From: a virus
Lineage: Duplodnaviria > Caudoviricetes
Strand: one strand, 5' to 3'
Virus record (IMG/VR): IMGVR_UViG_3300025789_000018
Length of the DNA: 64,000 bases
Positions 3,363 through 51,335 of the stretch are shown piece by piece. Position 1 is the stretch's first letter. Each line of letters begins with the position of its first letter. A program made the position numbers and the translations under genes. Below the pieces are notes generated by a model, which saw only the letters and a program-made list of their open reading frames with translations, ran no database searches and was not told where the DNA came from.

Positions 3363-3398
3363 TATTTATAAAAACTGATTACATCACTTATATAAGTA
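3363..3398. promoter_or_regulatory. Back-to-back T4-type late promoters
   Basis: TATAAATA on - (3363-3370) and TATAAGTA on + (3391-3398); gp55 is encoded in the window. Confidence 0.75.
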
Positions 3399-3403
3399 TT
3401 GAT

Positions 3404-3459
3404 GTCTGTCACGATACTGGAAATATCCACAGACTCTAACGCTTATAAGGAGCATCAGC
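3404..3459 (+). promoter_or_regulatory. Conserved hairpin leader, copy 1 of 5
   Basis: GTCTGT-CAC-GATA-ctggaaa-TATC-C-ACAGAC-TCTA then GCT..AGC stem over GGAG. Confidence 0.8.
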
Positions 3460-4122
3460 ATGAATATTTATCGCAGAATCTGGACTCGTCATTTCGGTCC
3501 CATTCCTAAAGATGAGAATGGTAGATCATACGAGATTCATCATATAGACGGCAATCGTAAGAACAACGATATTTCCAACTTAGTTTGCATAACGATACAA
3601 GAACACTATAACATACATTATTCTCAAAACGATTGGGCAGCCTGTTTACGTATCTCACAGAGAATGTCCATTAGTGCAGAAGAAAAGTCTAACTTGGCCA
3701 AGCTTGTTCAAACAAAAAGGCTTGAAGATGGTACACATCCTTTTTTGGATAAAGAAAATCATAAAAGATGGAATAAAGAAAAGATTCAAAATGGAACACA
3801 CAACTTTTTAGGTGGTGAAGTTCAAAGAAAACGTATAGAAGAAGGAACTCACCACTTTCTAGGAAGCGATATAAACAACAAAAGAGTAGAAGAAGGCACA
3901 CATCCATTTCTAGGTGGTGAAATACAGAGACAATCTAATAAAAAAAGAGTAGAAAATGGAACACACCATTTATTGGGTGGTGAAATGAACCGTAAAAGAT
4001 TCAAAGATGGAACTCATCCGTTTCTGAAGAAAAAAGAATGTCCTCATTGTTTAAACTATCTCGATCCTGGTAACTTTGCAAAACATCATGGCGATAAGTG
4101 TAAAATGAAGATCAGATCGTAG
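3460..4122 (+). CDS. Free-standing HNH endonuclease with tandem GTHxFL repeats
   Basis: YEIHHIDGNRKNNDISNL HNH motif; six GTH(P/N/H)(F/L)L repeats; C-terminal CPHC; antisense to flanking genes. Confidence 0.85.
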   Translation: MNIYRRIWTRHFGPIPKDENGRSYEIHHIDGNRKNNDISNLVCITIQEHYNIHYSQNDWAACLRISQRMSISAEEKSNLAKLVQTKRLEDGTHPFLDKENHKRWNKEKIQNGTHNFLGGEVQRKRIEEGTHHFLGSDINNKRVEEGTHPFLGGEIQRQSNKKRVENGTHHLLGGEMNRKRFKDGTHPFLKKKECPHCLNYLDPGNFAKHHGDKCKMKIRS

Positions 4123-4552
4123 ATATGGTTGCCTTTAACATCCAAGATAGTTTATTGTGTTTGTCAACCAAATCTTGAAGGAAGTTGCTGATTCCTATTT
4201 CACCAGCAAGTTCAGCCGCATGATATGCAGTTTCTAGAGATTGTGTAAGTATTAGATTATCTTCGTGCAGTGTTTCAAACATTCTTTGGCTAGAAGGAAC
4301 AGTAAGTGCATCATCAATATTAGTTAACTCTATAAACCGAGTAAAGGATGCTGGTGTGTATTCGTTTAGTGTTCTGATCTTTTCACCGATAGAATCAAAC
4401 TCTTCGAATACTTGAGTGTATATCTTTTCTAGAAATGTGTGATATTCATAGAAGTTGTTTCCTATTACATTAAAGTGATAGTTGTGTGACTTTAAATAAA
4501 ACGCAAAAGCATCTGCTAATGCTACTTTCAAAGAATCTATCAGTGTTGTCAT
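4112..4552 (-). CDS. dps: Dps / ferritin-like protein
   Basis: KSHNYHFNVIGNNFYEYHTFLEKIY..FDSIGEKIRTL ferroxidase-type motif; KLSWML C-terminus. Confidence 0.9.
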   Translation of the reverse strand: MTTLIDSLKVALADAFAFYLKSHNYHFNVIGNNFYEYHTFLEKIYTQVFEEFDSIGEKIRTLNEYTPASFTRFIELTNIDDALTVPSSQRMFETLHEDNLILTQSLETAYHAAELAGEIGISNFLQDLVDKHNKLSWMLKATISTI

Positions 4553-4935
4553 TGTTGTTCCTTTACATATCTGCCGTCGGGTGTTTTGGTTACTTTACCA
4601 TCTTTGATAGAAACCCAACCGATAATCGAGTAGCCTCTTTCTTTCCAGTCGGGTGCTTGCGAAAGTAGGGTCTTATTATATATGACGACAAACTGTTTAA
4701 CGTGTGCTTGTTGGTAGTCTCTATAAGAGAGAACATATGCACGATCATCTGGATTGGTTTGCTCTGAAGCCATCTTCGAAGCCGCATTGAATGCGCCGTT
4801 TCTGTCATTGTACATAAGAGAAGGATTCTTTAACACATCCTGTTTAGGTTGTGGTTGCCCTTGCTGGCCTTGTGGACCAGCAGGAATAGAAGCAACTTCA
4901 CTTTCCTCGATGATGTATCCTAGATATGTTTTCAT
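4549..4935 (-). CDS. Hypothetical protein, possible capsid-targeting N-terminus
   Basis: MKTYLGYIIEE resembles the T4 internal-protein CTS MKTYQEFIAE. Confidence 0.6.
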   Translation of the reverse strand: MKTYLGYIIEESEVASIPAGPQGQQGQPQPKQDVLKNPSLMYNDRNGAFNAASKMASEQTNPDDRAYVLSYRDYQQAHVKQFVVIYNKTLLSQAPDWKERGYSIIGWVSIKDGKVTKTPDGRYVKEQQ

Positions 4936-5052
4936 TACATTTCCTGTTTCTATTATTTATACTTCTAGTTAGGCATACTGAATACGTATAGCAGGAATAT
5001 ATACCGTATTTGCAAAATACTACTTTGGTCTTTGGGATTGATTATAGTTGGA

Positions 5053-7041
5053 TTAAACAATAGCAGTGACAAATGTGTTATATGTATTTCCATCTAAACA
5101 AAAGTACTTTACATACATTAAATTGTGTGTACATAAGTAAAATGACTGCCCACCAGTTGCTTGTGTTCCTGATCTTAGACTATGATTGAACTGTTGAGTA
5201 CCACCAATATTATTAAAAATGAATAATTCAATTGATCTACCAGCACCTGAACTTAGATTCTGAATGTTAGCAGTCAATGTTGCACCATTAGTATGCACAT
5301 AAATAATATTATCAGAAGCAAAGTCAATTAACACAGTATTCGATATAGCGGCATCAATTCGTACATTTGGTGCTTTGTATGCAGTACTTTGTGTGGTGTT
5401 ATCAGGGAAAGTAATGCCTGCATTTGCTTCAAGCGTAATATTGTTTGCTAACGTGTTTCCGTATATTGCCACGTTGCCTGAGAATGTAGCATTGTTAGAT
5501 GTTGTATTGCCTGTAACACTTAGATCGCCATATACATACGTATTATTTGCTGTAAATGCTCCATTTACTGTAGTTGCGTTTGATGTCATTAACATCGTTA
5601 CAGTAACTGTATTAGTTCCTAGTGGTGTTGTCCAAAATCTTAATGACGACCCTTGGTTTGCTACAGAGAAGTTTTCCGCTGTAACAAAGTCGATCCTTGC
5701 TGTTCCAGTAGAAGGAAATCCTGCGCCATCATATCCATTACCGCTAATACGTAAGATAACATCATTTGATGCTAAAGAAGTAGGTGCGCTGATTGTTCCT
5801 CTTGATGTTCTGCCAGCAATAGAGTTGTATACACCATTACCATAAGTGTCCATAACAAGACGATTGCTGACATTCGCAGAGTTGATAGCATACATCGTCA
5901 CACCAGGATCAGTAAATCCTTGTGGAGTTCCTAGCTGTGACTGAATGGTGAATGGTGCAGCGTTGGTTTGTGTGATAGGATTGATAATCTGTAGATTATT
6001 ACGGATTGTTGTTAATCCGTTGTTAGCCACTTCAAATGCAGATACAGCAGCATTTGCTACAGAGTTACCGATGTCTAGCGTTCTTTGGATTATGATTCTA
6101 CCGCCGTCACCAGGAGAACCGATAGTAAAGTCGTGTTGAGCATCAGCTAGTCTGATGGTATAGTTCTGTAGAATAACACCACCAGCATTGAAGCCAGCGT
6201 TTGCGTTAAATGTGGTGTTAGATCCTGAACCTTGTGTGATATAGAATACTTGATTCGCGAGAGACAGAACTTGGTCAGGTCCACCAAGAGTATCAGAGAA
6301 AGTGATAGAGTTAGAACCAACCCACAAAGATTCCCAACGATTGGTGTTGTTTCCTAGAGAATGGGCTAGTGAAACATCGGGATTTATACTTGAAGGTATG
6401 TGTAACCAATCAACCGCAGTTGTAACATTAGCGAACAAAAAGTTATTGGTACTTGAACTGTAACTTAGAAAATAGTTATTGACAAAAGTTGACTTGTCGA
6501 TGTCATCTAGATAGCGAAGATTGACTTCACCACCGCCTCCCATTTGTGACATGCGGGATGCAAATGAATGTAGATCAGTGATCGACTGTTTCATTTGCTG
6601 GATTTCAGCACGAACAGGATCAACCTTGACTACTTCTGGTCCTTCAGACTTCTTTGCAGTCTTAGTGATTGTGTCTGCCACTTTGTTTATGAAACTATCA
6701 GGCAATACAGGCTGTGGTTGTACTGGAGTAGCCTGAGAGTTAGGAACAGTGACTTCTCTAGAGTTAGCGTTCTTTATGTCAGCAAATGTATCTTCAACGA
6801 CAATAGGCTCCACAAACTCTTCCATGCTATCAACAAGAGAGTTGTGAAGTGTTTCGTTTTGCTTTTCCGTTGGTTTGATTTGGATGCCAAGTAGAGCATT
6901 CTCAAACTGTTCTAATAGTTTGCGCTCTTTCTCTTTCTTTGCAGCCGCTTCTTCAATCTGCTTAAATGCACTTTCTGAAACTTCTGGATTGCCCAGAAGT
7001 CTAGATAGATTATTCAGAAGTTTTTTCTCTTTCTCATTCAC
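5053..7041 (-). CDS. Virion structural / fibre-like protein (662 aa)
   Basis: Charged N-terminus, GGGGEVNLRYLDDID linker, long N/T/S/G-rich beta-type C-terminal part. Confidence 0.65.
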   Translation of the reverse strand: MNEKEKKLLNNLSRLLGNPEVSESAFKQIEEAAAKKEKERKLLEQFENALLGIQIKPTEKQNETLHNSLVDSMEEFVEPIVVEDTFADIKNANSREVTVPNSQATPVQPQPVLPDSFINKVADTITKTAKKSEGPEVVKVDPVRAEIQQMKQSITDLHSFASRMSQMGGGGEVNLRYLDDIDKSTFVNNYFLSYSSSTNNFLFANVTTAVDWLHIPSSINPDVSLAHSLGNNTNRWESLWVGSNSITFSDTLGGPDQVLSLANQVFYITQGSGSNTTFNANAGFNAGGVILQNYTIRLADAQHDFTIGSPGDGGRIIIQRTLDIGNSVANAAVSAFEVANNGLTTIRNNLQIINPITQTNAAPFTIQSQLGTPQGFTDPGVTMYAINSANVSNRLVMDTYGNGVYNSIAGRTSRGTISAPTSLASNDVILRISGNGYDGAGFPSTGTARIDFVTAENFSVANQGSSLRFWTTPLGTNTVTVTMLMTSNATTVNGAFTANNTYVYGDLSVTGNTTSNNATFSGNVAIYGNTLANNITLEANAGITFPDNTTQSTAYKAPNVRIDAAISNTVLIDFASDNIIYVHTNGATLTANIQNLSSGAGRSIELFIFNNIGGTQQFNHSLRSGTQATGGQSFYLCTHNLMYVKYFCLDGNTYNTFVTAIV

Positions 7042-7043
7042 TA

Positions 7044-8177
7044 TTAATGCCCTGAACTTCCACTTTTACCAGGTGGTAATGATTTAATAGAACCGTCTGC
7101 CATACGAATAGGAACTTTTGATGAAAACACTTTCTTGCGTTTCCCTGTGGTTCCAAGTGATACTTCGATTTCCTCTTTGACTGCCTTTTTCTTGGCTTTG
7201 CGCTTCTCATTGCTGATGGCTGAGTCAATCGTCAATGGCTGTCCGATAGTACCAGTATTTATTTCGTCTTGATTTGGGCTTGCATCAGTTGCACCAGAGA
7301 TGCCATCGAAACCCATTTCAGAAAAAAGCGATTCTTTCATCGCCTTGAATGTCTTGGCTTTCTTGTAGCCTTTAGAGTTTGCATTCTTTGCTAGTGTATA
7401 GTTCTGACCACCACTAGCAGAAGCACCTGGGTCACCAGCATTCTCTGCTCCCCAACCACCTGAAGTGCCTTCACCGCCAATGCCTTCTTCATCGACATAA
7501 GCTTTCACCAACTTCATGGCTTTGCGGCGCTTCAGTTGCTTTGTGGTGTCTTTTGATTCGAGGTCTTTGTCTAGACCAATAGGCTTATCGTCTGAGTCAG
7601 CACGATCAAAAGGAATGTTGTATCGGGCACTTTCGTATGGATTTGTAGTCACGCCTGTTGTATCTCCTTGACTCTGATTGTTACCACCAAAAGTGGCATT
7701 AAGCCCCATGATCTGCTTATCTTTGTAGTTTGGTGCTTTCTTGTACTTCTTTGGCTTTACTTCTTCAAATTGATTTCGTGAACCTGCATTCTGTGGATTT
7801 GCTGGTCGTGCAGGATTGGTTCTAGAAGCATTAGCATAACCAATAGAACGTTGATGTAGTTGTCCAGCTTGAACCTGTTGCTTGTCATGCATAGTTTCTG
7901 CTTTGGCACGTTTCGCGGCCGCTTCAGCAGCACGTTTTGCATTATCGACAACGATCTTTGCGCCAAGTTTTGCTACTTTTGCTCGATCTTTGTTGCCGCC
8001 AATGTCCTTGTGGATAGACTGATTCTGATATGTGACGGCCCTCGATAATGTATTGACCGCCGGTTTACTTTGAAATCCTGGATTGTTGCCAATAGATCCA
8101 GTCTTTAGCATTGGTTTGGCACGATTATCTAATGGCTTATTCACCCTTGTAGGTGGTTTGATCGGCATTTTGTCCAT
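7044..8177 (-). CDS. Hypothetical low-complexity protein (377 aa), possibly capsid-internal
   Basis: Long ORF in late cluster; K/G/N-rich with VKEE, MKES, VDEE sites. Confidence 0.55.
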   Translation of the reverse strand: MDKMPIKPPTRVNKPLDNRAKPMLKTGSIGNNPGFQSKPAVNTLSRAVTYQNQSIHKDIGGNKDRAKVAKLGAKIVVDNAKRAAEAAAKRAKAETMHDKQQVQAGQLHQRSIGYANASRTNPARPANPQNAGSRNQFEEVKPKKYKKAPNYKDKQIMGLNATFGGNNQSQGDTTGVTTNPYESARYNIPFDRADSDDKPIGLDKDLESKDTTKQLKRRKAMKLVKAYVDEEGIGGEGTSGGWGAENAGDPGASASGGQNYTLAKNANSKGYKKAKTFKAMKESLFSEMGFDGISGATDASPNQDEINTGTIGQPLTIDSAISNEKRKAKKKAVKEEIEVSLGTTGKRKKVFSSKVPIRMADGSIKSLPPGKSGSSGH

Positions 8178-8182
8178 GATTA

Positions 8183-8998
8183 TTACTTTCTTCTATGAAC
8201 CAAGCATCCTGTTCTGCCGCAGATATCACAGTCTTCCATGCTTTCTTTCAGACCCTTCTTGCCCTTACCAGCAGCCATGCCAGCGCGAACGTCATTATAC
8301 ATCTTTGTTCTTTGTTCTGGCTTCATTGCAGATGGCGCACCAGCTTCAAACTCTTTCTGGCGACCAGCACCAGCGTGTGCGCGCATGACCGATGCAGAGA
8401 TACCAGCAACGCCTTCAGCGTCTGGATCGCGATCACCAGACGAATGGATATTGATTGTCTTGAAGTTGTAGTATCCATGATTGCCATGAACACCATTGTA
8501 TTGGCCAAGCAATCTCTGATATTCTGGAATACGATCAGAACCAGCAACTAGATGTAGATCAGTAACACCATTCTCGTGTAGTTTTGATAAGTGGTGCATT
8601 AGTGTAGGATGCTCTTTATCTGTTACAGAAGTATTCACATCAGGGAAAGCAGCCTTAGCATGTTCTTCCTTTTGTGCTGGTGTCAATGGGTTCTTCTTTG
8701 GATCTTGTGATCGTGTAAGAACCATCGATGATGTGCCACCATTCTTCTTTGCTGTTTTTTTGACAACATCATATGCTGCTTCATGCCCAGCATGTGGTGG
8801 ATTTGCACGACCCCAGAACAGTGTATGATGCTTGCGAAACATATCAGGATCAGCAGCTTCGGTACGAAGTTGAACGTCTGGATTGATTAGAATCTGATTT
8901 GGCTGAGAACCAGTCATAGTTGCACCAGCTTGAATAGCAGACTGTGTGCCCTTGGCAGCTTCGATTCTCTTTGTAATCTTATCGTAAAAATCGCCCAT
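8183..8998 (-). CDS. Cytidyltransferase-like (HIGH-type) nucleotidyltransferase
   Basis: FWGRANPPHAGH, SQDPKKNPL, LVAGSDR, GISASVMR; start set at MGDFYD (8998). Confidence 0.8.
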   Translation of the reverse strand: MGDFYDKITKRIEAAKGTQSAIQAGATMTGSQPNQILINPDVQLRTEAADPDMFRKHHTLFWGRANPPHAGHEAAYDVVKKTAKKNGGTSSMVLTRSQDPKKNPLTPAQKEEHAKAAFPDVNTSVTDKEHPTLMHHLSKLHENGVTDLHLVAGSDRIPEYQRLLGQYNGVHGNHGYYNFKTINIHSSGDRDPDAEGVAGISASVMRAHAGAGRQKEFEAGAPSAMKPEQRTKMYNDVRAGMAAGKGKKGLKESMEDCDICGRTGCLVHRRK

Positions 8999-8999
8999 G

Positions 9000-14782: not shown

Positions 14783-14835
14783 TGTTCAATCTTTCACTCT
14801 GCTACATTCTCACCATACACGATTCGTATTAAATG

Positions 14836-15945
14836 TCAAGAGGCATTATACCGCTGGATATACCATGGGCGTGCTACATTCGCAATAGCAGATCCCAGCT
14901 TCTTGGTATCAATCTGATTCGCAACGATGGTATCAGCTTCTTCCTTGACGACATCATTGTAGACCCAACGGATAAAATCGCCGAGAGACTTCATATCAAA
15001 GGGCAGCAGTTGTTCGCGAACCAGATTGTCTAGACCCTGTTCAAGACGCGATTCAGTGACAACTGATTCGATGAAAGCCTTCATGTTCTCTACTGCTTCA
15101 ACATCAACAGCAGCAAGAGTCTTGACCTTCGAAGAAGAATGCTTTTCGCCCTTGACTTTAAACCAAGTGCCCGAGTCGTTATAACCAGGAGTGACGCAAG
15201 TCCACACAACACCTTCGCCAATGCCGCTAACACCAAAGTGCTTACCGACAGGGCATTCGGCTTCAACAGCTTCCGTGATTTCGATCATCTTGTTCTGAGC
15301 GATTTCAGGAAAGTTGAAGTCAATGTCGATTTCGTAGGTAGGAAACTCATTGATCCAGTAAATATTAGGGACAGCCCGTTGACTCACTTCAATGAAACTT
15401 GGCATGTTTGCCCAGACAGAATCATCATCTGCATACATTTCTTTATATGCAAACACAACAAACATCTTGTCCAGACCAGTAAGAGCAACACCCTTTTGGA
15501 TATTACCACCGCACCATTCACCAAACAAAACTAGTTTTGTTGGCATTTTATTGGTCTTGCGCGGAGCAAACTGTTCCATAAGACCGTTGTGGAAACATGC
15601 TTCAAAATACTGAATAAAGATTGATTCGTGACTCTTAGCCCAAAGCATGAAGCCAGCATTGTCAGAAGTCAGCGACAGTTCACGTTCACGCGACTGATAG
15701 CTAATAGTGTCGGTGGCAACGTCATACACGATACCCGCGTTGGTACCATGCAGCTTGACAGTACCACGAAACTTCAGCGTAGGAAGCGGGCGAGAATGAT
15801 CATACACAGCATTGCCATCAGCATCCTTGCCAGCATACCGCGTATGGTTCTTGACATGATGAATCGTGGAACGGAACTGTTCAATAGAGGGAAACCTAAT
15901 CAAGTGCAATCTCCTTTTCTTTGCATGGCATATCTTCCGCACCAA
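14836..15945 (-). CDS. RNA ligase 2-family protein
   Basis: TVKLHGTNAGI motif I, LFGEWCGGNIQKG, GEGVVW, FKVKGEKH; true start may be a downstream TTG. Confidence 0.85.
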   Translation of the reverse strand: MVRKICHAKKRRLHLIRFPSIEQFRSTIHHVKNHTRYAGKDADGNAVYDHSRPLPTLKFRGTVKLHGTNAGIVYDVATDTISYQSRERELSLTSDNAGFMLWAKSHESIFIQYFEACFHNGLMEQFAPRKTNKMPTKLVLFGEWCGGNIQKGVALTGLDKMFVVFAYKEMYADDDSVWANMPSFIEVSQRAVPNIYWINEFPTYEIDIDFNFPEIAQNKMIEITEAVEAECPVGKHFGVSGIGEGVVWTCVTPGYNDSGTWFKVKGEKHSSSKVKTLAAVDVEAVENMKAFIESVVTESRLEQGLDNLVREQLLPFDMKSLGDFIRWVYNDVVKEEADTIVANQIDTKKLGSAIANVARPWYIQRYNAS

Positions 15946-16087
15946 AATCTACGATATAAGGAAAGGGAAGATAATCTTCCAGAACATCAACCACTGTTCC
16001 TACTTGATTTTCGTTAACAAGTCCAATATCTCGCGTGGCATACACCCTATCACCAATCTTAAACATAATCTTCTTCCTCATCTTCAA
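15896..16087 (-). CDS. Small hypothetical protein
   Basis: FKIGDRV..GTVVDV, SH3-like pattern. Confidence 0.5.
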   Translation of the reverse strand: MKMRKKIMFKIGDRVYATRDIGLVNENQVGTVVDVLEDYLPFPYIVDFGAEDMPCKEKEIALD

Positions 16088-16226
16088 TCAAGAAACCTTC
16101 ACCACCACAAACGACGCAAGTTTCACCATATTCTACACCACTGCCACCACAGACCATACAATCAATAGGATTGCAGCCACGACGACCATACGCATCTTCA
16201 TACACATCAGGATCAATCATAAAGAC

Positions 16227-30698: not shown

Positions 30699-30768
30699 TA
30701 TAAGTAATATTGTCTGTCACGATACTACTAATATCCACAGACTCTAACGCTAAACAGGAGCATCAGCT
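30699..30768 (+). promoter_or_regulatory. Late promoter plus conserved hairpin leader, copy 2
   Basis: TATAAGTA; GTCTGT-CAC-GATA-ctactaa-TATC-C-ACAGAC-TCTA. Confidence 0.8.
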
Positions 30769-31362
30769 ATGGTTATTTATCTATACGTGAAGCAATGTGG
30801 TCATTGTGATATGAAATATTTTGGTTACACTAAAACAAAAAATCCTTTCAGATATAAAGGATCTGGTCAGTATTGGATCAGACACATAAAATCGCATAAC
30901 ATAACACCTATAACTTTAGAAGTACACACCTTCTATAACCAAGAAGACGCTACGGCATATGCTATTTCGTTCTCACAAGAAAATGATATTGTCGAATCTA
31001 AATCTTGGGCAAATCTTGTACAGGAAGACGCTAAACCTGGAAATGTGGGATGTAAATATCACACAGGACCAAGATCGGGGTTAACTGAAGAATCGAGAAT
31101 CAAAATGGGACTTGCGAACAAGGGGAAGAAACGATCATCTGATACTATAAAAAAACTTTCAGATTCACACAAAAACAGAAACAAAACTCAACTAGAAATA
31201 GATCGTTTAACTAGTCTACACAAGAAAAATGTAGGTAAAAAAAGATCAACTGAAACAAAAGAAAAAATGAGACTTGCTCAACTTGGTAAAGTTCCAAGTG
31301 AAGAGACTAAGAAAAAAATAAGCGAAACATTAAAAAATAAACATCAAGGCAAAAGATCGTAG
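30769..31362 (+). CDS. GIY-YIG-like (Seg-type) homing endonuclease with NUMOD3-like repeats
   Basis: IYLYVKQC..C.MKYFG, YKGSGQYW; RSSDTIKKLS, RSTETKEKMR, PSEETKKKIS. Confidence 0.8.
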   Translation: MVIYLYVKQCGHCDMKYFGYTKTKNPFRYKGSGQYWIRHIKSHNITPITLEVHTFYNQEDATAYAISFSQENDIVESKSWANLVQEDAKPGNVGCKYHTGPRSGLTEESRIKMGLANKGKKRSSDTIKKLSDSHKNRNKTQLEIDRLTSLHKKNVGKKRSTETKEKMRLAQLGKVPSEETKKKISETLKNKHQGKRS

Positions 31363-31592: not shown

Positions 31593-31669
31593 TGGTCTAC
31601 CATGAGAGATTTGAACTCCCGATCTCCTGGCCCCAAACCAGGCGGATTACCAGACTTTCCTAATGGTAG
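31593..31669 (-). tRNA. tRNA-Pro(UGG)
   Basis: Cloverleaf; CCTGG-TTTGGGG-CCAGG; TTCAAAT T-loop; encoded CCA. Confidence 0.92.
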
Positions 31670-31779
31670 ACAATAATCTATTTAGATGAACAATGAACGT
31701 TCAAGTTCTGGTCCTGATTTTCATACCATCTAGCGCCTTACGTCTAGTTCGTAATAGATCATTGTTCATCAAAATAGTC

Positions 31780-31853
31780 TGGTGCCGATAAGAAGAATCG
31801 AACTCCTGTCAGAGGGTTACAAATCCACTGTATTACCACTATACTATATCGGC
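31780..31853 (-). tRNA. tRNA-Thr(UGU)
   Basis: GCCGATA/TATCGGC acceptor, TTTGTAA loop, TTCGATT, CCA; two mismatches in the anticodon stem. Confidence 0.85.
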
Positions 31854-34094: not shown

Positions 34095-34171
34095 TGGCTC
34101 CCTAGATAGGATTCGAACCTATAACGACAAGATTAACAGTCTTGTGCCCCTACCGATAGGGCCCCTAGGGA
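34095..34171 (-). tRNA. tRNA-Asn(GUU)
   Basis: TCCCTAG/CTAGGGA, CAAGA-CTGTTAA-TCTTG, TTCGAAT, CCA; G8 and U14 are atypical. Confidence 0.9.
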
Positions 34172-41702: not shown

Positions 41703-41705
41703 TCC

Positions 41706-42939: not shown

Positions 42940-43210
42940 ATTAGTTCTCCTATTTAAGCGAGAGTTGATGTAATGTCTACCCATTTGGCATAGACGAGTT
43001 ATTTATAAACGTTTCCACTTACTGCCGAGAAGAATCCTGGTCTTCATTCTGAACCACCAGGATTTCTCTTCTCTAAACTTTAACACGATTGCATTAGGAT
43101 CACCAAATACAACCCACTCCCATATGAAGGGTGGTAGCTTCGGTGTAGGCGTCCATACTGGTTCCCATGGTTGCATAATGTATCATCCTGAAAGTTTGTC
43201 TTTGTATAAT

Positions 43211-43606
43211 CTAACGTTTTCCTATATTATATTTTGTTACAAGATTCCAATCATGCTTTTCTTTGTATGATAAAATCTTGATTTGATTTAGTGGAGTGAT
43301 TGGTTCTTCTGTTTTCTTTGGTTCAACAATAGTGAGTAAACCCCACTCTGCCAAAAGATTGATGATTGTGTTTCTACGACCTTCATCTGTATCCGAGAAA
43401 TCAGTTGGTTTGCCATCAAGAGCAAACAACTCTTTGAAGTGAACGATATAGTATTTCTTCTGCTTATGCAGAATATGACAGGACTGATACAGGATCTTGT
43501 CCTTACGTGAAGCGATCCCAATGCGAGTCAACGTTTCTTTAATCTTCAAGAAATCGTCTGGCTCTTTTAGGGTTACCTCTACTAGAGCCTCTACTGTCAG
43601 TTTCAT
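43211..43606 (-). CDS. regA: Translational repressor RegA
   Basis: DFLKIKETLTRIGIAS, LYQSCHILHK..YYIVHFKELFALDG, RRNTI..LLAEWGL. Confidence 0.96.
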   Translation of the reverse strand: MKLTVEALVEVTLKEPDDFLKIKETLTRIGIASRKDKILYQSCHILHKQKKYYIVHFKELFALDGKPTDFSDTDEGRRNTIINLLAEWGLLTIVEPKKTEEPITPLNQIKILSYKEKHDWNLVTKYNIGKR

Positions 43607-44082: not shown

Positions 44083-45005
44083 TCTGCCATGATCGATAGA
44101 ACGAACGCAGCGGTATTGATTTCCTGATTGGCGACAAATGCAGACTTGTATTGAAACTCAGCTAGGTGAAGGATCAGTTGACCAATAGAGTTGTCTTTAA
44201 CAATATCTGCAATGTTATCGTACATATCACGAAACAGTGTGGTGCTATCAATGTCAGTGTTCTCTCCTACCCACTTACGAGCAGCAAAGAAGTTCTTTGC
44301 TTTCAGTGCAACAAGAAGTGTCTTATAACTATCAGACCCACTATTACCAAGAATACTCTTGTCGATATTGCCTGTCGCGGAATGCCTCTGAAGTTCATTT
44401 AGAACCCTCCTCCAATCTGGAAAGTGACGATTGATCAACTCAGCGATTACAGGCTTATCATACGTAACGCCTTCAGCATCTAGGATACCAGAGATACGCT
44501 TCATAAACTGAACCGCAAGAACGGGCTTATCTTTCTTGGCAATGTTAAACTCAACAACAGAACACCGAGAATGTAGAGGTGCGATAAGCCGATTCTTAAA
44601 GTTGCATGTCAGAATGAAACCACAGTTACGGCTAAACTCTTCCATGAAGTTACGAAACGCTGGCTGCACTTTGTCAGCAGACAGATAATCTGCCTCGTCA
44701 ATGATGACGTATTTACGACCACCCTTGAACGAGACAGACGATGCAAAACCAGTGATTTCATTTCGAAGAACATCGATACCAGCATTCAACGAACCGTTGA
44801 TGATGATATAATCACAGTCCAGTTGCTCTAGCATTGCACGAGCAACGGTGGTCTTGCCTACACCAGGACCACCCGTGAGTAGTAGATTTGGGATGTTCTT
44901 TTGATCAACAAACTGTTGAAACGTTTCTTTTAGATCAGCAGGAAGAATACAATCTTCAATCGACTTTGGCCGATATCGCTCCACCCACAAAAAGTCTTCA
45001 AGCAT
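44067..45005 (-). CDS. 44: Clamp loader large subunit gp44
   Basis: LWVERYRP, GPGVGKTT, IIDEAD, FILTCN, SRC, HFPDWRRVLNELQ. Confidence 0.96.
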   Translation of the reverse strand: MLEDFLWVERYRPKSIEDCILPADLKETFQQFVDQKNIPNLLLTGGPGVGKTTVARAMLEQLDCDYIIINGSLNAGIDVLRNEITGFASSVSFKGGRKYVIIDEADYLSADKVQPAFRNFMEEFSRNCGFILTCNFKNRLIAPLHSRCSVVEFNIAKKDKPVLAVQFMKRISGILDAEGVTYDKPVIAELINRHFPDWRRVLNELQRHSATGNIDKSILGNSGSDSYKTLLVALKAKNFFAARKWVGENTDIDSTTLFRDMYDNIADIVKDNSIGQLILHLAEFQYKSAFVANQEINTAAFVLSIMADCDFK

Positions 45006-45032
45006 AATATATTCCTTTCAAACAAGATTCAT

Positions 45033-45099
45033 TATAAGTAGATGTAGGTCACGATGTAACAGCATCTACCTACTCTAACGCTTTTACGGAGCATCAGCT
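45033..45099 (+). promoter_or_regulatory. Late promoter plus conserved hairpin leader, copy 3
   Basis: TATAAGTA; GTAGGT-CAC-GATG-taacag-CATC-T-ACCTAC-TCTA. Confidence 0.8.
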
Positions 45100-45648
45100 A
45101 TGTTTATATATAAGATCACGAACAAAGTCAATGGTAAAACATACATTGGCAAAACATCAAAGTCTATCGAAGAGAGATTTCGTAGACACTTCTATCATCA
45201 CAAAACAGGAAATACACATCTATATAGAGCCATGAGAAAATATGGATTCGATAGTTTTTCTGTAGCAATGATCGAAGAAACTTCTCAACTAAATGAGAGG
45301 GAGATATTCTGGATCAAAGAACTTCAGCCCGAATATAATATGACTAAAGGTGGAGATGGTGGCGATTCATCTAAATCTCTCACTTTCATAAAATCAATAG
45401 AAGTGTATCATAAAAACAAATCTAAAGAATCTTATGCTACATATGGAATGCTAGGTAAAAAACAATCACAGAAGTTCTTCGAATCGATCAAGAAATCTAA
45501 CAGTTGTCCAGTAATGTGTGAAGGTGTCCAATATTCTTCTGTAGGTGAAGCAGAAAAAGCTTATCCTGGTATCAATCTAAGAAAAAGATTGGACAACCCA
45601 AAATATCCACATTTCTATCGTTTGCGAGAAAGAACCAGAAGAGGTTAA
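45100..45648 (+). CDS. GIY-YIG homing endonuclease
   Basis: FIYKITN..NGKTYIGKT, RF..H, EREIFWI, YNMTKGGDGG. Confidence 0.88.
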   Translation: MFIYKITNKVNGKTYIGKTSKSIEERFRRHFYHHKTGNTHLYRAMRKYGFDSFSVAMIEETSQLNEREIFWIKELQPEYNMTKGGDGGDSSKSLTFIKSIEVYHKNKSKESYATYGMLGKKQSQKFFESIKKSNSCPVMCEGVQYSSVGEAEKAYPGINLRKRLDNPKYPHFYRLRERTRRG

Positions 45649-46301
45649 CTGAAGGAAGAATCTTTCTCTGTCGCAATGAAGTATGTAACACCAGTCGCAG
45701 TAAACTTTGAGATGCCCGCCTTTGAGATTGATACATCATAGTCATTAGGAAGAAGCTTAAGATTTTCATTCTTAAAGATAGCATTGAATACAAGATTGGT
45801 AGAACCTACCACGATGCTGTACTTGTCCTTCGAAGGATTCTTGCTATCATCAGCCGATAGATAGATGTTTTCACCATCACCAGAGATGATTGTTTCTGGA
45901 AGACCAAGAACACCAGCAGCCTTTTGAACCTTAGTGAGGTCTTCTTGGGTGATAGATAGATTGATTTCAGCAGCAGGGAAGTTTAGATCCTTTGCGGGTG
46001 AAGTAACGAACGTTGATGGATCAGCGTAGGTGTATACTAGCTTACGCTTGTCTGAGGCAATAGTAGCCTGTGTTTCACCGAAGTGGATTTCTGGCTGATC
46101 AAACAGCAATAGCGCACCAAGAAACTTTGATAGATCATAGATTGCAAAGTCACGGTCAAAGGTTTCTTGAACTTCTGCACTCGCCATCACAGTCTTTTGT
46201 GGTGAGATAGTGCGAATCATATTACCAGAGCGAAACAGAATGCCGTGATTGATTGACGAAAAGTTCTTGAGGACAGTAAGGGTATTTTCACTTAGCTTCA
46301 T
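45645..46301 (-). CDS. 45: Sliding clamp gp45
   Basis: MKLSENTLTVLKNFSSIN, FAIYDLSKFL, FKNENLKLLP.DYDV. Confidence 0.95.
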   Translation of the reverse strand: MKLSENTLTVLKNFSSINHGILFRSGNMIRTISPQKTVMASAEVQETFDRDFAIYDLSKFLGALLLFDQPEIHFGETQATIASDKRKLVYTYADPSTFVTSPAKDLNFPAAEINLSITQEDLTKVQKAAGVLGLPETIISGDGENIYLSADDSKNPSKDKYSIVVGSTNLVFNAIFKNENLKLLPNDYDVSISKAGISKFTATGVTYFIATEKDSSFS

Positions 46302-46385
46302 AGTATCATCCTTTTCAATGTGGTGTTTCCAAAGATCACCTTGGAAACACCGTTATAACAAACCTATAGGCAGAAGTCTAGACTT

Positions 46386-47348
46386 TTATCCCTTTTTGCC
46401 CAACTTTGATGGATCAGCAGTAGCAGCAGCGCCAACGGCTGCTAGATCAGCGAGTGAACCACCAAACACGTATGAACCAACATGCTGTAGCTGAATCCAT
46501 GGAGCAAGCCATACCTTTAGACCAATCTTACGTGCCCACTGGCAGAACATATAGTCTTCTGATAGATAGCGATTCGAGTATTCAAAACCAAAAGCAGAAT
46601 GCTTTGCATCGTCAAGGAACGCGACAACTTGTTCCTGAGTAGCCTTAGGATTCTTCTTGTAGAACTCACGAATCTCATTGCTGATATGCGCGTGCTTGTT
46701 GTCGATAAGTGCATCAAACAAGCAAGGGATTTCACGCGAACCATCAAATGCGGCTGTGCGAACGTGGTCAGGGCGATACATCAGATGTGGGTATTCGGTG
46801 GTCATCTTTTCGAGAGCCGAACGCTTGATCATCATAAAGCCAGTACCAGATTCTAGAACTTCGGCGGGTTCAGCGATCTTGATTTCGTTCTTGCCATTAG
46901 CAGGATTGAAAACATAGTCACCAACAAACTTTTCAAGAACACTGGCATCCTGATCGGCAAAGCCCTTATCAACAGCCATCTTGATCTTTTCCCATGAGAT
47001 GCACTTCTTAGGATATGGACCACAAAGGATGTCGTATTCTGATTCTTCACTCATCAGAGCAAGCATCGTCATTACGTCATTGGAGTTAAAGCCAATGTCT
47101 GAGTCGATGAACATCAAGTGTGTGCAGTCTGACCGAAGGAACTCATCTACGCAGTAGTTACGAGCGCGGGTGATAAGTGATTCGTTGAACAGATAGTAAT
47201 ACTTGACTTCAACACCATAATGAACGGCTAGTGCTGATAGATCGTTTGTGCTACGACAGAACATGCCTGCACATGCACCACCATACATTGGAGTTGCAAC
47301 AAATAGTTTACGCTTGCGTAGTTCTTCAATAGGTACCTTAACTTCCAT
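46386..47348 (-). CDS. GT-A fold glycosyltransferase-like protein
   Basis: FVATPMYGG, ESLITRARN, FIDSD (DxD), GTGFMMI, YLSEDYMFC. Confidence 0.75.
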   Translation of the reverse strand: MEVKVPIEELRKRKLFVATPMYGGACAGMFCRSTNDLSALAVHYGVEVKYYYLFNESLITRARNYCVDEFLRSDCTHLMFIDSDIGFNSNDVMTMLALMSEESEYDILCGPYPKKCISWEKIKMAVDKGFADQDASVLEKFVGDYVFNPANGKNEIKIAEPAEVLESGTGFMMIKRSALEKMTTEYPHLMYRPDHVRTAAFDGSREIPCLFDALIDNKHAHISNEIREFYKKNPKATQEQVVAFLDDAKHSAFGFEYSNRYLSEDYMFCQWARKIGLKVWLAPWIQLQHVGSYVFGGSLADLAAVGAAATADPSKLGKKG

Positions 47349-47355
47349 ATTATAT

Positions 47356-48060
47356 TCACCTTTCTTTTACAAAGCGACCATTTTGGTCTTGTTTTGATAA
47401 TCTTTTTTTAGCTTCATTACTTTTTATGCCAACATATAGTCCTTTATTGTTGAGGAATATTTCCCTATCGATCTTCAATATGTTTCCATCCAAATCTACA
47501 CAGACAACTTTACTCTTATTGTTGTAACCAAGTTTGGTTCCAATATCTTTCGCTGCAAGTCTTCTTATTTGTGACTGTTCATGTCCAAATATTTCTTCCC
47601 AAGTCTTATCTTTTTTCGCTAAAGATTGTTTTTGTTTGGTGTGTTCAGATCGTTTACACCCAAAAGATGGGTTGTGTACACCAAACATACGAACTTTTTT
47701 TCTTGATCCGGACGCATATGCAGAAACTAAACTATCAGATATGAGGGATTTTGTATGATCGGAAGTAATAAATCCACATCCTCTACCACCATATCTACCG
47801 TTTTCTGATTTTAGATTTGCCCACTCTTTGGATTGAACTATGTCATTTTTTTCTGAGAAGATCAAAGCAAACGTTGAACATAATTCCTGATCATCAAACC
47901 CAAAAATTTCTAAAGTTGTCTGTGTGGATTTATGTTTCTTTAGATGACGTATCCAATATTTTCCTGATCCTCTATATCTGAAAGGATCAGTATTCTCGGT
48001 TTTGCCGAAATATTTGAGTCCGCAATGTGTGCATTGTTTGACATAGAGATAAATAGTCAT
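47356..48060 (-). CDS. GIY-YIG-like (Seg-type) homing endonuclease
   Basis: IYLYVKQCTHCGLKYFGKT, YRGSGKYW; paralogue of 30769 and 59653. Confidence 0.8.
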   Translation of the reverse strand: MTIYLYVKQCTHCGLKYFGKTENTDPFRYRGSGKYWIRHLKKHKSTQTTLEIFGFDDQELCSTFALIFSEKNDIVQSKEWANLKSENGRYGGRGCGFITSDHTKSLISDSLVSAYASGSRKKVRMFGVHNPSFGCKRSEHTKQKQSLAKKDKTWEEIFGHEQSQIRRLAAKDIGTKLGYNNKSKVVCVDLDGNILKIDREIFLNNKGLYVGIKSNEAKKRLSKQDQNGRFVKER

Positions 48061-48127
48061 GCTGGTAACTCCTATATAGTTCTAGAGTAGTCGGAGGCGG
48101 CAACCTCGTGGACTACAATTATTTATA
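48061..48127 (-). promoter_or_regulatory. Late promoter plus conserved hairpin leader, copy 4
   Basis: TATAAATA; GTAGTC-CAC-GAGG-ttgccg-CCTC-C-GACTAC-TCTA; AACT..AGTT stem over the SD. Confidence 0.8.
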
Positions 48128-48144
48128 TAGGAGTACATTTATAG

Positions 48145-48630
48145 CTATCTCTTATGCTCTAGATCGTGTACGTACAAAGCTATAATAGCATAATGTATTA
48201 CTTTCATCAAGTCTTTTCTCCAATCGTCTGTAGATCCTTTTTGACCGTAACGACCAGAATACTTATCAACATTGCCTAGACAAAATCCTAGTCCACGACC
48301 ACGATCAATCGCAATTTCAGTTGATTGTATGTTGCCTTGCGCATAGTGTTCGCCATACGTCTTATCGATATAATCGGCGATTTCTTGAAGTGCTTTGTCT
48401 TCGTTGTATTTATAATCGATTTTTGATGGTTGTATTCTACGAAAAAACTCTTCATTAGTTTCTCCATTATATTGATTATGTTGTTTTTTCATTTCTTTAC
48501 GATTAAGTTCATCTGCCAAATATGTGTCGATTGGGCGTTTATACGGGCTGTCTGCTACCTGCCGTCTTACAAAGTCCTCCCAAGTTTCTATTCCAAGACC
48601 AACTGGATTTAATCCATCACTTTCACTCAT
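48145..48630 (-). CDS. DUF3310-like conserved phage protein
   Basis: YKYNED..YIDKTY..HY, FCLGNVDKY..RYG.KG, DLMKVIHY. Confidence 0.7.
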   Translation of the reverse strand: MSESDGLNPVGLGIETWEDFVRRQVADSPYKRPIDTYLADELNRKEMKKQHNQYNGETNEEFFRRIQPSKIDYKYNEDKALQEIADYIDKTYGEHYAQGNIQSTEIAIDRGRGLGFCLGNVDKYSGRYGQKGSTDDWRKDLMKVIHYAIIALYVHDLEHKR

Positions 48631-49079
48631 TCTTCACCTTCCATTTCATATTGCAGATAAATCACACCCGCTTCTTCAAGAATGTCTTTAGCGAGTTTTG
48701 TGGATTCTTTCCAGTGTTCAGGCAGATTCTTAGGAACTTCTGCAATAACAGTTCTGATGCCAACTTGAATGATACCTTTGCAACATTCAGAGCATACAGG
48801 TAAACCATACACGTATAGTTTGGCTCCGTCAAGAGATATTCCATTTAAACATGCATTATAGATGCAGTTCATTTCTCCGTGAACGACATACTTATACTTC
48901 GTTTCACGATCATTCAAGCGATCATCATCTTTGATACCTCTTGGAAAGCCATTGTATCCAGTTGCCAGGACATTTTGATTTTTTCCAATAGCAACAACAC
49001 CAATCTGTTTAGATGGATCTTTTGACCAAGTTGAGATATTCTTAGCCGTATCCAAATGACGGCGTGTCCACTTATGCAT
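48627..49079 (-). CDS. cd: dCMP deaminase
   Basis: SKDPS..IG, GYNGFPRG, VVHGEMNCI, PVCSEC. Confidence 0.9.
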   Translation of the reverse strand: MHKWTRRHLDTAKNISTWSKDPSKQIGVVAIGKNQNVLATGYNGFPRGIKDDDRLNDRETKYKYVVHGEMNCIYNACLNGISLDGAKLYVYGLPVCSECCKGIIQVGIRTVIAEVPKNLPEHWKESTKLAKDILEEAGVIYLQYEMEGEE

Positions 49080-49993
49080 TATACAGTTTCTTTCTTCAAA
49101 CGAACTAGTTTCATTCCGTAGTTGTCTACTTTAGGTAGTGACTTCAGATCAATGTCTTTCTTCATAATCAACTGGTTCTTCTTGAATGGACCATAGTCAA
49201 CGTAATGATGCCATCTACCGTAGCGAAATACCATGCGGGCCACGTCTGGATGCATGTCTACGAGCATTTGTGACTTGTTGATTGTTCCCTCTGGATTAAG
49301 CTGGCCATCTCTCCATTGAGCCTTGTCTTGTGTGCCTTCAGCATGATAAAACTCAGCAGTGTTACCACCTTTGACAGTCTGTGTTGCAGCTTTGCCTTGA
49401 AGAAAAGCATTAAACTGAATAGTACAATCACCATCTTTCAATACACGAAGGCAGATATCAGTATCTTCGTTGTAACGACCACGCCAGCGATGCTTACAAT
49501 CATTTCGGATAAGCAATGTGGAATAGATACGAGTGTTTGTTACAAAGGCAGGATACTTCTGATTTGGTGCAATAAAGAAACGATATTGAAAACCAGAGAT
49601 AGGAACATTCTCATATCGGTCAACAAAGTCTTCAGCAACTTTGAAGATCACACCAGATTCAACGCGAATACGACTGTTTTCATGGAGACGATAAAAGTCT
49701 GTGATGTTGTCGTCCATTACCCAGTGACTAGTTGCACCAATAGAGATAGAATGATCCCAGCACCAGTTTCTAGCGCGACCTGGTCCGTCGCCGTGATTAC
49801 TGAAAGGTGCAACTAGAAGAGTGACATACTCACGGATGCCAAAGTTGTCTAGTGCTTGTTCATACAAAGCTTCATCCTGTGGTTCAATCGCAATGTAATG
49901 TGGCACTTTCATTCGTGCCAATGAACGAGAGGTCAGCATTGATTCATGCCGACCTTTACTAATGATATAGACAGGATATTTTGGATTAGTCAT
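49079..49993 (-). CDS. TET/JBP-associated-type (GREB1-like) glycosyltransferase
   Basis: YPVYIISKGR, GPGRARNW, WVMDDN, IYSTLLI, RGRYNED.D, GGNT. Confidence 0.7.
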   Translation of the reverse strand: MTNPKYPVYIISKGRHESMLTSRSLARMKVPHYIAIEPQDEALYEQALDNFGIREYVTLLVAPFSNHGDGPGRARNWCWDHSISIGATSHWVMDDNITDFYRLHENSRIRVESGVIFKVAEDFVDRYENVPISGFQYRFFIAPNQKYPAFVTNTRIYSTLLIRNDCKHRWRGRYNEDTDICLRVLKDGDCTIQFNAFLQGKAATQTVKGGNTAEFYHAEGTQDKAQWRDGQLNPEGTINKSQMLVDMHPDVARMVFRYGRWHHYVDYGPFKKNQLIMKKDIDLKSLPKVDNYGMKLVRLKKETV

Positions 49994-50336
49994 CAGTTTC
50001 AATCCACCTACGAAGTGCATTTGCATCACGATCTAGCTTTGGATGCCAGATGCTTTTTGTTTTGATAGTAAGATGCTGATCGATCAACTTGGCAAACTCT
50101 TCATAGTCTTCTTTGTTACGGAAGCTTACGTAAATCTGTTTATATGGTGGATTAGTATCTTGCTTGAACTCGGGCATTCCTACCCAATGTTTCTTCCACT
50201 TTACATCATCTTGCTCCAAAGTTTCGTCTTCAGGCAAGAATGCATCAAGAGTAGATACACCATAAGAGATGTTCTTTGAGTCAATCAGACTTTCGTATTC
50301 TGTAGATTCATCAACTACAGGCTTATTGTCTTCCAT
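49986..50336 (-). CDS. Conserved partner of the glycosyltransferase
   Basis: WVGMPEF..IYVSF..EDYEEFAKLIDQ..T.KTKSIWHP; overlaps the GT start. Confidence 0.6.
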   Translation of the reverse strand: MEDNKPVVDESTEYESLIDSKNISYGVSTLDAFLPEDETLEQDDVKWKKHWVGMPEFKQDTNPPYKQIYVSFRNKEDYEEFAKLIDQHLTIKTKSIWHPKLDRDANALRRWIETDD

Positions 50337-50349
50337 AATATACTCCGTC

Positions 50350-50865
50350 TTATGCGATAGCTAGTTTCTTATTGATTTTGTTGAACGCTTTCTGTTGTTT
50401 GAAAGCCTGTTCTTTGTGGATCAAACTAGCGCGATTGATATGAACAATGCCGTTTAGATGATCTAGTTCATGTTGAAACACACGAGCAGTTAGACCTTCA
50501 AACTTTTCTGTTCTCGTTTCGCCGTTAGGCATAGTAAAGCGAACTTTGATCACAGCTGGACGCTTGATCTTTACCGATAGCCCAGGATGACTTAAGCAGC
50601 CTTCTAACATATACACTTGCTCGGCGGAAGAGTCAACGATTTTTGGGTTGAAACATGCAAGAATCTGTTCGCCATTGATGACAAATGCACGATAGGGCAG
50701 ACCGACCTGATTCGCAGCAAGCCCCAAGCCTTTGTTCTCAATCATAGTCTCAGCTAGATCACGAGCCAACTGAATAGGATCAGTAGGTGGATTGCTGAAA
50801 TCAAAATATTCAAGTTCTGTTTTGAGAATAAGATCGTTCTTATCTACAAGAGGTAGAATAGCCAT
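50350..50865 (-). CDS. def: Peptide deformylase
   Basis: GLGLAANQVG, EGCLS, QHELDH. Confidence 0.95.
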   Translation of the reverse strand: MAILPLVDKNDLILKTELEYFDFSNPPTDPIQLARDLAETMIENKGLGLAANQVGLPYRAFVINGEQILACFNPKIVDSSAEQVYMLEGCLSHPGLSVKIKRPAVIKVRFTMPNGETRTEKFEGLTARVFQHELDHLNGIVHINRASLIHKEQAFKQQKAFNKINKKLAIA

Positions 50866-51242
50866 CAGTTTACTCCTAGGATTGGCTTAAGATTTGGTCG
50901 AACATAGTTTGGTCCTTTGATGATCTTGCCATCTTCGCGATGAACAGGCTTACCATCTTCACCAAGCTTGGTCATGTTACTATTGTGTACTTCTGCTAGA
51001 CAAGCATCTAGATCAATGCCAAAAGCAACACCAGCACCGTAGGTGACATATAGAATGTCAGTCAGCGCGTCTGCTACTTCTACCAAGTTCTTGTCCTTGA
51101 TCGCATCCTTAAGTTCCTGAAACTCTTCGCGAATCAGTTCTACGCGAAGTTTAATAACGTCTTTTGCAGGAAACCCTGGAGTATCTGGAGCATCTTGACC
51201 AAATACTGTAGTGAACTCTTTTACTTTTTCAAAGTTAGTCAT
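50865..51242 (-). CDS. MazG-like / PRA-PH NTP pyrophosphohydrolase
   Basis: [29 protein letters not shown]. Confidence 0.85.
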
Positions 51243-51265
51243 GCTATTCCTCACATTAAAATTTA

Positions 51266-51335
51266 TATAAATATATTGTGGTTCACGATATTACCAGTAT
51301 CCAACCACTCTAGTCCTCGTACAAGGAGTCCAGCC
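51266..51335 (+). promoter_or_regulatory. Late promoter plus conserved hairpin leader, copy 5
   Basis: TATAAATA; GTGGTT-CAC-GATA-ttaccag-TATC-C-AACCAC-TCTA; TCCT..AGGA stem. Confidence 0.8.

Follow-up and report, generated by a model that had tools for sequence, protein, structure and literature searches.

Among the selfish genes of large phages, free-standing homing endonucleases rank with the most common, and to our knowledge only a few of them, in T4 and Aeh1, have a known control that keeps them harmless, by hairpins that mask the ribosome-binding site (RBS). What might restrain such genes elsewhere is the question raised by a 64,000-nucleotide stretch of DNA from a virus of the Caudoviricetes (Duplodnaviria; IMG/VR record IMGVR_UViG_3300025789_000018; hereafter the window), in which one and the same structured element stands between a late-promoter box and each of five endonuclease genes. 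An original prediction, made from the window alone, took this element for an RNA signal at the 5' end of the late nuclease transcript. Here we describe it as a real, widespread and uncatalogued structured element, whose fold under selection probably lies antisense to the nuclease leader and which faces a second late-promoter box, on the opposite strand, inside the gene. As an explanation we propose that each cassette encodes a structured cis-antisense RNA of about 70 nt that would limit translation of its own nuclease in the manner of RNA-OUT of IS10, a proposal whose chances we judge to be even.

One element in front of many endonuclease genes

The five copies in the window (copies 1 to 5) share a single layout, given here as read on the sense strand: a stem of 6 bp (P1), a 3-nt "bulge", a second stem of 4 bp (P2) with a loop of 6–7 nt, the returning arm P2', one nucleotide, the returning arm P1' and TCTA, with P1 beginning 3–5 nt 3' of TATAAGTA or TATAAATA in every case. 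Pattern search and covariance model agree on the predicted places (3404, 30712, 45044, 48116 on the minus strand, and 51278): a loose pattern matched 5 sites where 0.18 were expected by chance, and the covariance model, run with filters off, returned exactly five copies at 57–70 bits, the next match scoring 9 bits. The stem sequences and the compensatory changes among them are likewise as first described.

The element is also found far beyond this phage. We scanned IMG/VR with two patterns, a CAC form and a CGC form, and obtained at least 118 loci with the former and at least 119 with the latter, which places the element at more than 230 phage loci; the covariance model recovered further copies that fit neither pattern. 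All six free stem positions are complementary in 96 of the 118 matches listed for the CAC form and, among the matches listed in both scans, a TAA(A/G)TA box stands just upstream in 157 of 169 unique cores and CAG(C/T) downstream in 166 of them. In 187 of 207 copies, 3–5 nt separate the end of the upstream sense box from the first paired base, as in all five copies of the window.

The pairing is supported by covariation in this larger set. Across 129 aligned copies, double compensatory changes occur at 16 of 17 pairs, and the covariation score of the sense-strand model is 0.602, against 0.19 for shuffled alignments and at most 0.08 when the pairing partners were slid. The mirror-image model of the antisense strand scores 0.701 on the same copies, and over both strand models the shuffles range from 0.19 to 0.25 and the slid controls reach at most 0.13.

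Several features that had been taken as invariant turn out to vary together with their partners. The "bulge" is C-R-C rather than a fixed CAC (CGC in 89 and CAC in 80 unique cores), with a middle base that varies in step with the single base opposite: the combinations are (G,C) in 89, (A,T) in 40, (A,C) in 39 and (G,T) in 0. The supposedly constant GT/AC, and with it GA/TC, is replaced in a compensatory way in some of the copies found without a pattern. The second small stem that had been placed over the Shine–Dalgarno sequence (SD), here P3, is real and covaries, and it keeps a fixed register: the 5' arm follows TCTA, the 3' arm ends exactly at the conserved CAGC, and the SD sits in the loop or the 3' arm. 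Some subfamilies have the AUG within the 3' arm of P3, and CAGC then falls inside the coding sequence. The P2 loops are highly variable, with 47 different loops among 76 cores.

No family in Rfam accounts for the element. Rfam 15 at gathering thresholds found only tRNAs in the window, and scans of two copies at permissive E-values gave chance matches only, of 12 bits or less. Among cultured phages, the covariance model had no match in S-SRM01, S-N03, B23, ACG-2014f, S-PM2, T4, Aeh1 or HTVC008M, four of the searched cyanophages being carriers of homologous endonucleases. The only cultured-phage record found with a copy is that of Pseudoalteromonas phage vB_Psh_XG4 (PP712099, flagged UNVERIFIED_ORG; L239:1430-1500); this copy is divergent, with TGTA/CACC replacing TCTA/CAGC in a compensatory exchange, and it has no opposite-strand promoter box after the ATG.

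Two known kinds of RNA structure were considered and rejected. A kink-turn needs G·A pairs, but the GA/UC positions are Watson–Crick and covarying; hammerhead, pistol and similar ribozymes found no Rfam match, and the CUGAUG-like stretch is not conserved.

The strand that folds

Sense and antisense RNA of the element would form mirror-image structures, and their pair statistics differ. Standard pairs make up 89.3% of the sense model and 96.5% of the antisense model on the 129 copies, the latter reaching 97.0% once the base of its first hairpin (GCUG/UAGA) is included. Read on the antisense strand, the fold consists of a G, a hairpin A of 7–9 bp with CUCC in or next to its loop, a single A, and a hairpin B in which P1 and P2 are joined by a purine–pyrimidine (R-Y) pair with two bulged G's at its sides. 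CAGC and UCUA appear on this strand as GCUG and UAGA, which lengthen hairpin A by C-G, U-A and G·U pairs, the third of which is G·U in 124 copies and A-U in 3.

The non-Watson–Crick pairs of the sense strand are almost all of one kind: A·C outnumbers G·U by 24 to 1 in P1 and P2, by 57 to 5 in P3 and by 39 to 0 at the R-Y pair. On the complement these A·C oppositions become G·U, which RNA tolerates, and the antisense fold is thereby favoured; at the R-Y pair the antisense strand has GC in 56 copies, AU in 37 and GU in 34, whereas the sense strand has GC in 56, AU in 37 and other combinations in 35. By the same statistics, the bases that had been called invariant and single-stranded, TCTA among them, are paired on the antisense strand. 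The antisense fold is also the stabler one in 192 of 201 unique copies (mean -16.6 vs -12.2 kcal/mol; p ~2e-33), including all five copies in the window. Judged from these pairs, the fold under selection is antisense to the nuclease leader, and the original prediction was probably wrong about the strand. CUCC, the complement of the SD, lies within hairpin A in all copies, so that an antisense RNA would overlap the RBS of its target.

The pair statistics bear equally on the idea that the hairpins act on the sense strand, where they would open the late nuclease mRNA and either bind RegA or another protein or work as a translational switch; variants of this idea have CUCU after P1 serve as an anti-SD for GGAG in the P3 loop, or a 5'-terminal hairpin stabilise the mRNA. 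The geometry suits it, as the element lies 3–5 nt after the sense box and would thus come first in the mRNA, the SD or the AUG is in every case part of P3, and the sense RNA does fold into P1/P2; moreover, leader hairpins control T4 endonuclease genes (PMC2988022). It has to accept, however, A·C oppositions at the sites of G·U on the other strand, a fold that is the weaker one in those 192 copies, and a "bulge" and TCTA that are accounted for as pairs on the other strand. The sense P3 is only 4–6 bp long, often with an A·C mismatch, and leaves the SD mostly in the loop. As for RegA, which had been put forward as the binder, a regA homologue is encoded in the window (43211-43606) and nothing ties it to the element, and the highly variable loops argue against any loop-reading protein of this sort. 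We therefore regard a recognition element on the sense transcript as unlikely.

A second late-promoter box inside the gene

The motif TA(T/C)(T/A)TA follows CAGC at a distance of 4–7 nt in 173 of 201 copies, and of exactly 5 nt in 119. Its consensus on the sense strand is TATTTAT, and the other strand accordingly reads ATAAATA, 5 nt, GCUG. The position matrices of this box and of the sense box agree (A-TAAATA-N5-G, including A at -12 and T at -1). The distance between box and CAGC is kept whether the ATG lies 9 nt before the end of CAGC or 0–2 nt after it, and the box is found in all three reading frames, where it encodes x-I-Y, M-Y-L or other residues. Synonymous choices follow the box: T is the last base of codon 2 in 84 of 89 cases, against a background of 33%, ATT accounts for 62 of 71 Ile codons, against 42%, and TAT for 74 of 82 Tyr codons, against 71%. 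In twelve copies ACT (Thr) is found, which turns the box into ATAAGTA, a variant that also occurs on the sense side in this phage. Frame-independent spacing together with the synonymous-site bias argues for a constraint on the nucleotides and not on the protein. In cultured cyanophages, homologous GIY-YIG genes that lack the element lack the second box as well. At the level of sequence, then, the 5' end of the gene contains a match to a late-promoter box that lies on the opposite strand and would be directed across the leader. A function of the hairpins in the nuclease mRNA would leave this frame-independent box unexplained.

A structure on the bottom strand could also act within long transcripts, either mRNA reading through from a neighbouring gene or RNA from an outward promoter of the cassette, where it would serve for processing, for stabilisation, or as a weak terminator or insulator that limits the polar damage of the insertion. 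About two thirds of the cassettes with a clear upstream neighbour indeed point away from it (95 divergent vs 47 co-oriented), four of the five in the window point against their neighbours (for example, the one between gp45 and gp44), and T4 endonuclease genes embed promoters for neighbouring genes (PMC2988022). The second box is, however, as well conserved where the upstream neighbour is co-oriented and offers no gene to drive (39 of 47 cassettes) as where it is divergent (71 of 92), which argues that it is not there to drive the neighbouring gene; an outward promoter for neighbouring genes was rejected for this reason. The orientation of the element is fixed relative to the nuclease gene and not to the neighbours, as in copy 4, and the next bottom-strand gene in the window lies at variable distances of 24 to 120 nt. 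A role in long transcripts thus appears to us quite unlikely.

Two other candidates were set aside. A long-range helix that would join the sense box to the TATTTAT downstream of the AUG in read-through RNA, like a T4-type mask, was rejected as the main explanation because box types combine freely within copies (copy 5 has TATAAATA vs TACTTATT) and because all other helices favour the opposite strand. A small peptide encoded on the bottom strand was rejected, the AUG in GCUGAUG not being conserved.

Sense boxes may be of more than one kind: at L024:2160-2187 and at L059:2830-2856 and 4340-4367, TG(T/A)CAACAA takes the place of sense TATAAATA and the antisense TATTTAT is kept. TG(T/A)CAACAA may be a different type of promoter for the sense transcript.

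The five cassettes and their mobility

The window contains the replication module of a T4-like myovirus (gp43, gp44, gp62, regA, gp45, gp46/47, gp41 and a UvsW-like gene), with a DNA polymerase about 50% identical to cyanomyovirus polymerases. Window DNA occurs in many freshwater lake metagenomes, none of the runs listed for it being an RNA run, and megablast of the window against cultured phages gave no match. The sense box is TATAAGTA in copies 1–3 and TATAAATA in copies 4 and 5, and the cassettes are arranged as follows, the strand of each structured element being the one that is predicted to fold.

3391..3398, plus strand: copy 1, sense late-promoter box TATAAGTA, 5 nt before P1
3404..3459, minus strand: copy 1, structured element
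3465..3472, minus strand: copy 1, antisense late-promoter box GATAAATA (sequence match), within codons 2-5 of the HNH gene and 5 nt from GCUG
3460..4122, plus strand: copy 1, HNH_3 homing endonuclease gene
30699..30706, plus strand: copy 2, sense late-promoter box TATAAGTA
30712..30767, minus strand: copy 2, structured element
30774..30781, minus strand: copy 2, antisense late-promoter box GATAAATA (sequence match)
30769..31362, plus strand: copy 2, Seg-like endonuclease gene (PHROG 314, NUMOD3)
45033..45040, plus strand: copy 3, sense late-promoter box TATAAGTA, between the gp44 and gp45 genes
45044..45098, minus strand: copy 3, structured element (-24.0 kcal/mol, z -4.6)
45105..45112, minus strand: copy 3, weaker antisense box TATATATA (sequence match)
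45100..45648, plus strand: copy 3, GIY-YIG endonuclease gene
48120..48127, minus strand: copy 4, sense late-promoter box TATAAATA
48061..48116, plus strand: copy 4, structured element (folded antisense strand, the gene being on the minus strand)
48048..48055, plus strand: copy 4, antisense late-promoter box GATAAATA (sequence match)
47356..48060, minus strand: copy 4, Seg-like endonuclease gene (NUMOD3, PHROG 314)
51266..51273, plus strand: copy 5, sense late-promoter box TATAAATA
51278..51334, minus strand: copy 5, structured element
51341..51348, minus strand: copy 5, antisense box AATAAGTA (sequence match)
51336..51914, plus strand: copy 5, GIY-YIG-like endonuclease gene (PHROG 314 and 15526)

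Copy 1 illustrates the predicted product: an antisense RNA would start at 3459 with GCUG and continue through hairpin A, one A and hairpin B, and the TATAAGTA box, read on this RNA, would form an A/U-rich 3' tail. Its fold is calculated at -18.6 kcal/mol, against -11.3 for the sense strand. The antisense box of copy 5, AATAAGTA, is the same G variant that this phage has in its sense promoters, and codon 3 is accordingly Thr, not Ile.

The genes behind the element had been described as an HNH type and GIY-YIG types. This holds in outline, with one HNH_3 endonuclease and four that are GIY-YIG or Seg-like, although only one of the four reaches the Pfam GIY-YIG family and the other three match PHROG 314. 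In the family as a whole the element precedes GIY-YIG genes, HNH_3 genes with or without AP2, NUMOD3-only genes, DUF7487/TnsA-like genes and open reading frames (ORFs) with zinc fingers, which bears out the view that it is independent of the type of nuclease.

Within the window, similarity between leaders does not track similarity between proteins. The leader of copy 1 (HNH) is 86% identical to that of copy 2 (Seg-like), the two sharing both stems of hairpin B, with most of the differences confined to the promoter spacer and the two loops, and their proteins are unrelated; copies 2 and 4, by contrast, encode related proteins behind leaders that are only 65% identical. In the relative L040, a 713-bp insertion stands just after regA, and the DNA on either side of it is 99.8% identical to the window. 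This insertion (L040:4894-5606) starts at the TATAAATA box, holds the element and a Seg-like gene whose stop codon lies in the flank, and is bordered by a 6-bp GTCTTT repeat; its empty site, that of a sixth cassette, is at 43197-43209 in the window, just downstream of regA. The boundaries of the insertion indicate that promoter, structured region and gene move as one unit, and together with the uncoupling of leader and protein they agree with the mobile expression module that the original prediction had offered as one of its two readings.

Exchange of this kind might alternatively be the very function of the element if it acted as DNA, with a hairpin or cruciform of the template (bottom) strand serving in replication, recombination or promoter opening, as a hotspot of recombination or gene conversion that shuffles leaders and cassettes, or as a modulator of the two late promoters. 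G·T is the best-tolerated mismatch in DNA too, so the strand asymmetry would suit a bottom-strand DNA hairpin; unrelated nuclease genes do exchange leaders, the cassette boundary does coincide with the promoter box, and in T4-like phages the promoter/stem-loop motifs known as PeSL mediate shuffling (PMC4122927). We nevertheless hold a DNA-level element to be very unlikely: two short, interrupted hairpins with bulges make poor cruciforms, the fixed spacing of about 5 nt between the first paired bases and the promoter box at either end speaks for transcripts, and recombination depends on homology and not on conserved pairs that are G·U on a single strand.

Two further endonuclease-like ORFs of the window have no element. 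The first (59653-60276, minus strand) is Seg-like with NUMOD3 and keeps a late box and CAGC-ATG, and in its leader (60277-60330, minus strand) both hairpins and the second box are lost, with an orphan ACTCTAGA further upstream; this leader looks like a decayed copy of the module. The second (56693-57420, minus strand) is HNH-like, overlaps the end of the UvsW-like helicase gene, and has its own TATAAGTA box and no structured element.

Some further observations concern the surroundings of the cassettes. The late-promoter boxes of this phage lineage include TATAAGTA besides TATAAATA (at 3391, 30699, 45033 and in the 57400 region), and the G variant of the box is also antisense in copy 5 and in the L040 cassette. 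Eight tRNA genes lie in three groups (31596-31853, 34098-34171 and 61945-63783), the first of which adjoins copy 2; T4 segB also lies next to tRNA genes. The region of copy 4 (47368-48626) is represented in L009:249-1216 by a 213-aa vWA-like gene and a shorter neighbouring ORF, a difference that is a replacement and not a simple insertion. An 893-bp segment that spans the HNH-like ORF (56649-57540) is missing from the near-identical relative L006, which has a 1.1-kb insertion at window positions 60402-60407. Kilobase-scale insertions and deletions are frequent in this phage population (for example, 14819-16184 vs L123); in the region of window positions 5021-7015, a 662-aa ORF that has no PHROG match (5053-7041, minus strand) is absent from the close relative L018.

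A proposed cassette-borne antisense RNA

The explanation that we favour is that of a cis-antisense RNA carried by the cassette. Two late promoters would face each other across about 60 bp in each cassette, the upstream box (TATAAATA or TATAAGTA) giving rise to the nuclease mRNA and the second box, in codons 2-4 on the opposite strand, to an RNA of about 70 nt whose first bases, GCUG, are complementary to the CAGC before the AUG. This RNA would fold into hairpin A, with CUG/UAG at its base and the CUCC complement of the RBS in its loop, and then into hairpin B, and would run out into the A/U-rich complement of the sense promoter. Given full complementarity, RBS included, it would pair with the mRNA leader, probably loop to loop at first, and this pairing would block the RBS or trigger cleavage, such that the selfish nuclease would be kept at a low dose. 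The hypervariable loops fit a cis-encoded antisense pair better than they fit a protein site.

Certain points weigh against this proposal. The alignments of the covariance model are fitted to the structure, and most copies were gathered by patterns in which some bases are fixed. The Y·R pair that closes P2 reads U·G or C·A whichever strand is taken, and this position consequently does not discriminate between the strands; the sense strand, too, forms the mirror structure, which puts the SD into the P3 loop, and it may have a role. In a simple terminator scan hairpin B was not called, and the tail that follows it is A/U-rich with no canonical U-tract.

Relation to known systems

Antisense RNA controls the transposase of IS10/Tn10, where RNA-OUT pairs with RNA-IN, and SymR controls symE in cis by the same logic. 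The proposed phage module would resemble RNA-OUT in that a selfish element limits its own enzyme by a short, stably folded cis-antisense RNA, in that the promoter lies inside the 5' end of the gene and faces the gene's own promoter with the RBS covered, and in that the stem contains bulges or mismatches. It differs in having T4-type late boxes in place of sigma-70 promoters, in its two-hairpin RNA, and in serving at least five nuclease families in hundreds of phage cassettes, and it is a prediction from sequence.

The hairpins that mask the RBS of I-TevI, I-TevII, I-TevIII, segB and Aeh1 mobE are arranged around a late promoter, which lies inside the hairpin so that late transcripts lose the inhibitory arm (PMC2988022). 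A late promoter by an endonuclease gene, RNA structure around the RBS and restriction of a selfish nuclease would be common to both. In the present module, however, the promoter lies upstream of all helices, and the pairing is selected on the opposite strand; with its promoter outside every helix, the module does not share the nested promoter of the I-TevI class.

A case within T4-like phages is CfrI of cyanophage S-PM2, an antisense RNA of about 225 nt that links psbA and an endonuclease gene (Millard et al. 2010, as cited in PMC2984593). As it is presented there, CfrI likewise is an antisense RNA overlapping a homing endonuclease gene, but belongs to a single locus and not to a portable cassette; we found no other antisense RNA published for a phage endonuclease gene. 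Covariance model R2 gave no match in the S-PM2 record (NC_006820), which includes the psbA/F-CphI antisense region, even at E up to 1. Having no match in S-PM2, T4 or Aeh1, the element is neither CfrI nor a T4 or Aeh1 leader.

The element, or one related to it, may have been sighted before. Dassa et al. 2009 (PMC2677866) described "fractured gene" loci on contigs of T4-like phages in ocean and lake metagenomes and reported conserved hairpins with TATAAATA in 15 of 16 5' untranslated regions of GIY-YIG and Vsr-like endonuclease genes, with two conserved motifs complementary on the stem. Compared by description, these hairpins may be the same or a related element, although they were read as sense-strand RBS masks that include the promoter, with no covariation analysis, family definition or antisense reading (PMC2677866). 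PeSL, which combines an early promoter and a terminator in hyperplastic regions of T4-like phages, is similar in being a small repeated promoter-plus-stem-loop module between unrelated genes that can mediate module exchange (PMC4122927); the element described here differs by its late boxes on both strands, its specific two-hairpin fold and its tie to nuclease genes.

Tentatively, and at somewhat less than even chances, we suggest that this portable sense/antisense late-promoter module represents an undescribed RNA family, RNA-OUT-like and encoded partly in the first codons of the gene that it would control, which has been swapped among at least five unrelated nuclease families of freshwater T4-like phages and in which the variable loops would set the match between RNA and mRNA.

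Implications

The analysis delimits a large RNA family, strongly covarying and without an entry in Rfam, and shows that a unit of control is modular and moves between nuclease families. For the discovery of RNA motifs it also holds a caution: the adjoining gene does not tell which strand folds, and the balance of G·U against A·C does. With respect to the control of selfish genes in phages, there is now sequence-level evidence for a logic different from that of RBS-masking hairpins, namely an antisense RNA borne by the cassette, with its promoter embedded in codons 2-4 of the nuclease gene. If this is true, codons 2-4 would offer a clear example of coding sequence held under constraint by an opposite-strand promoter.

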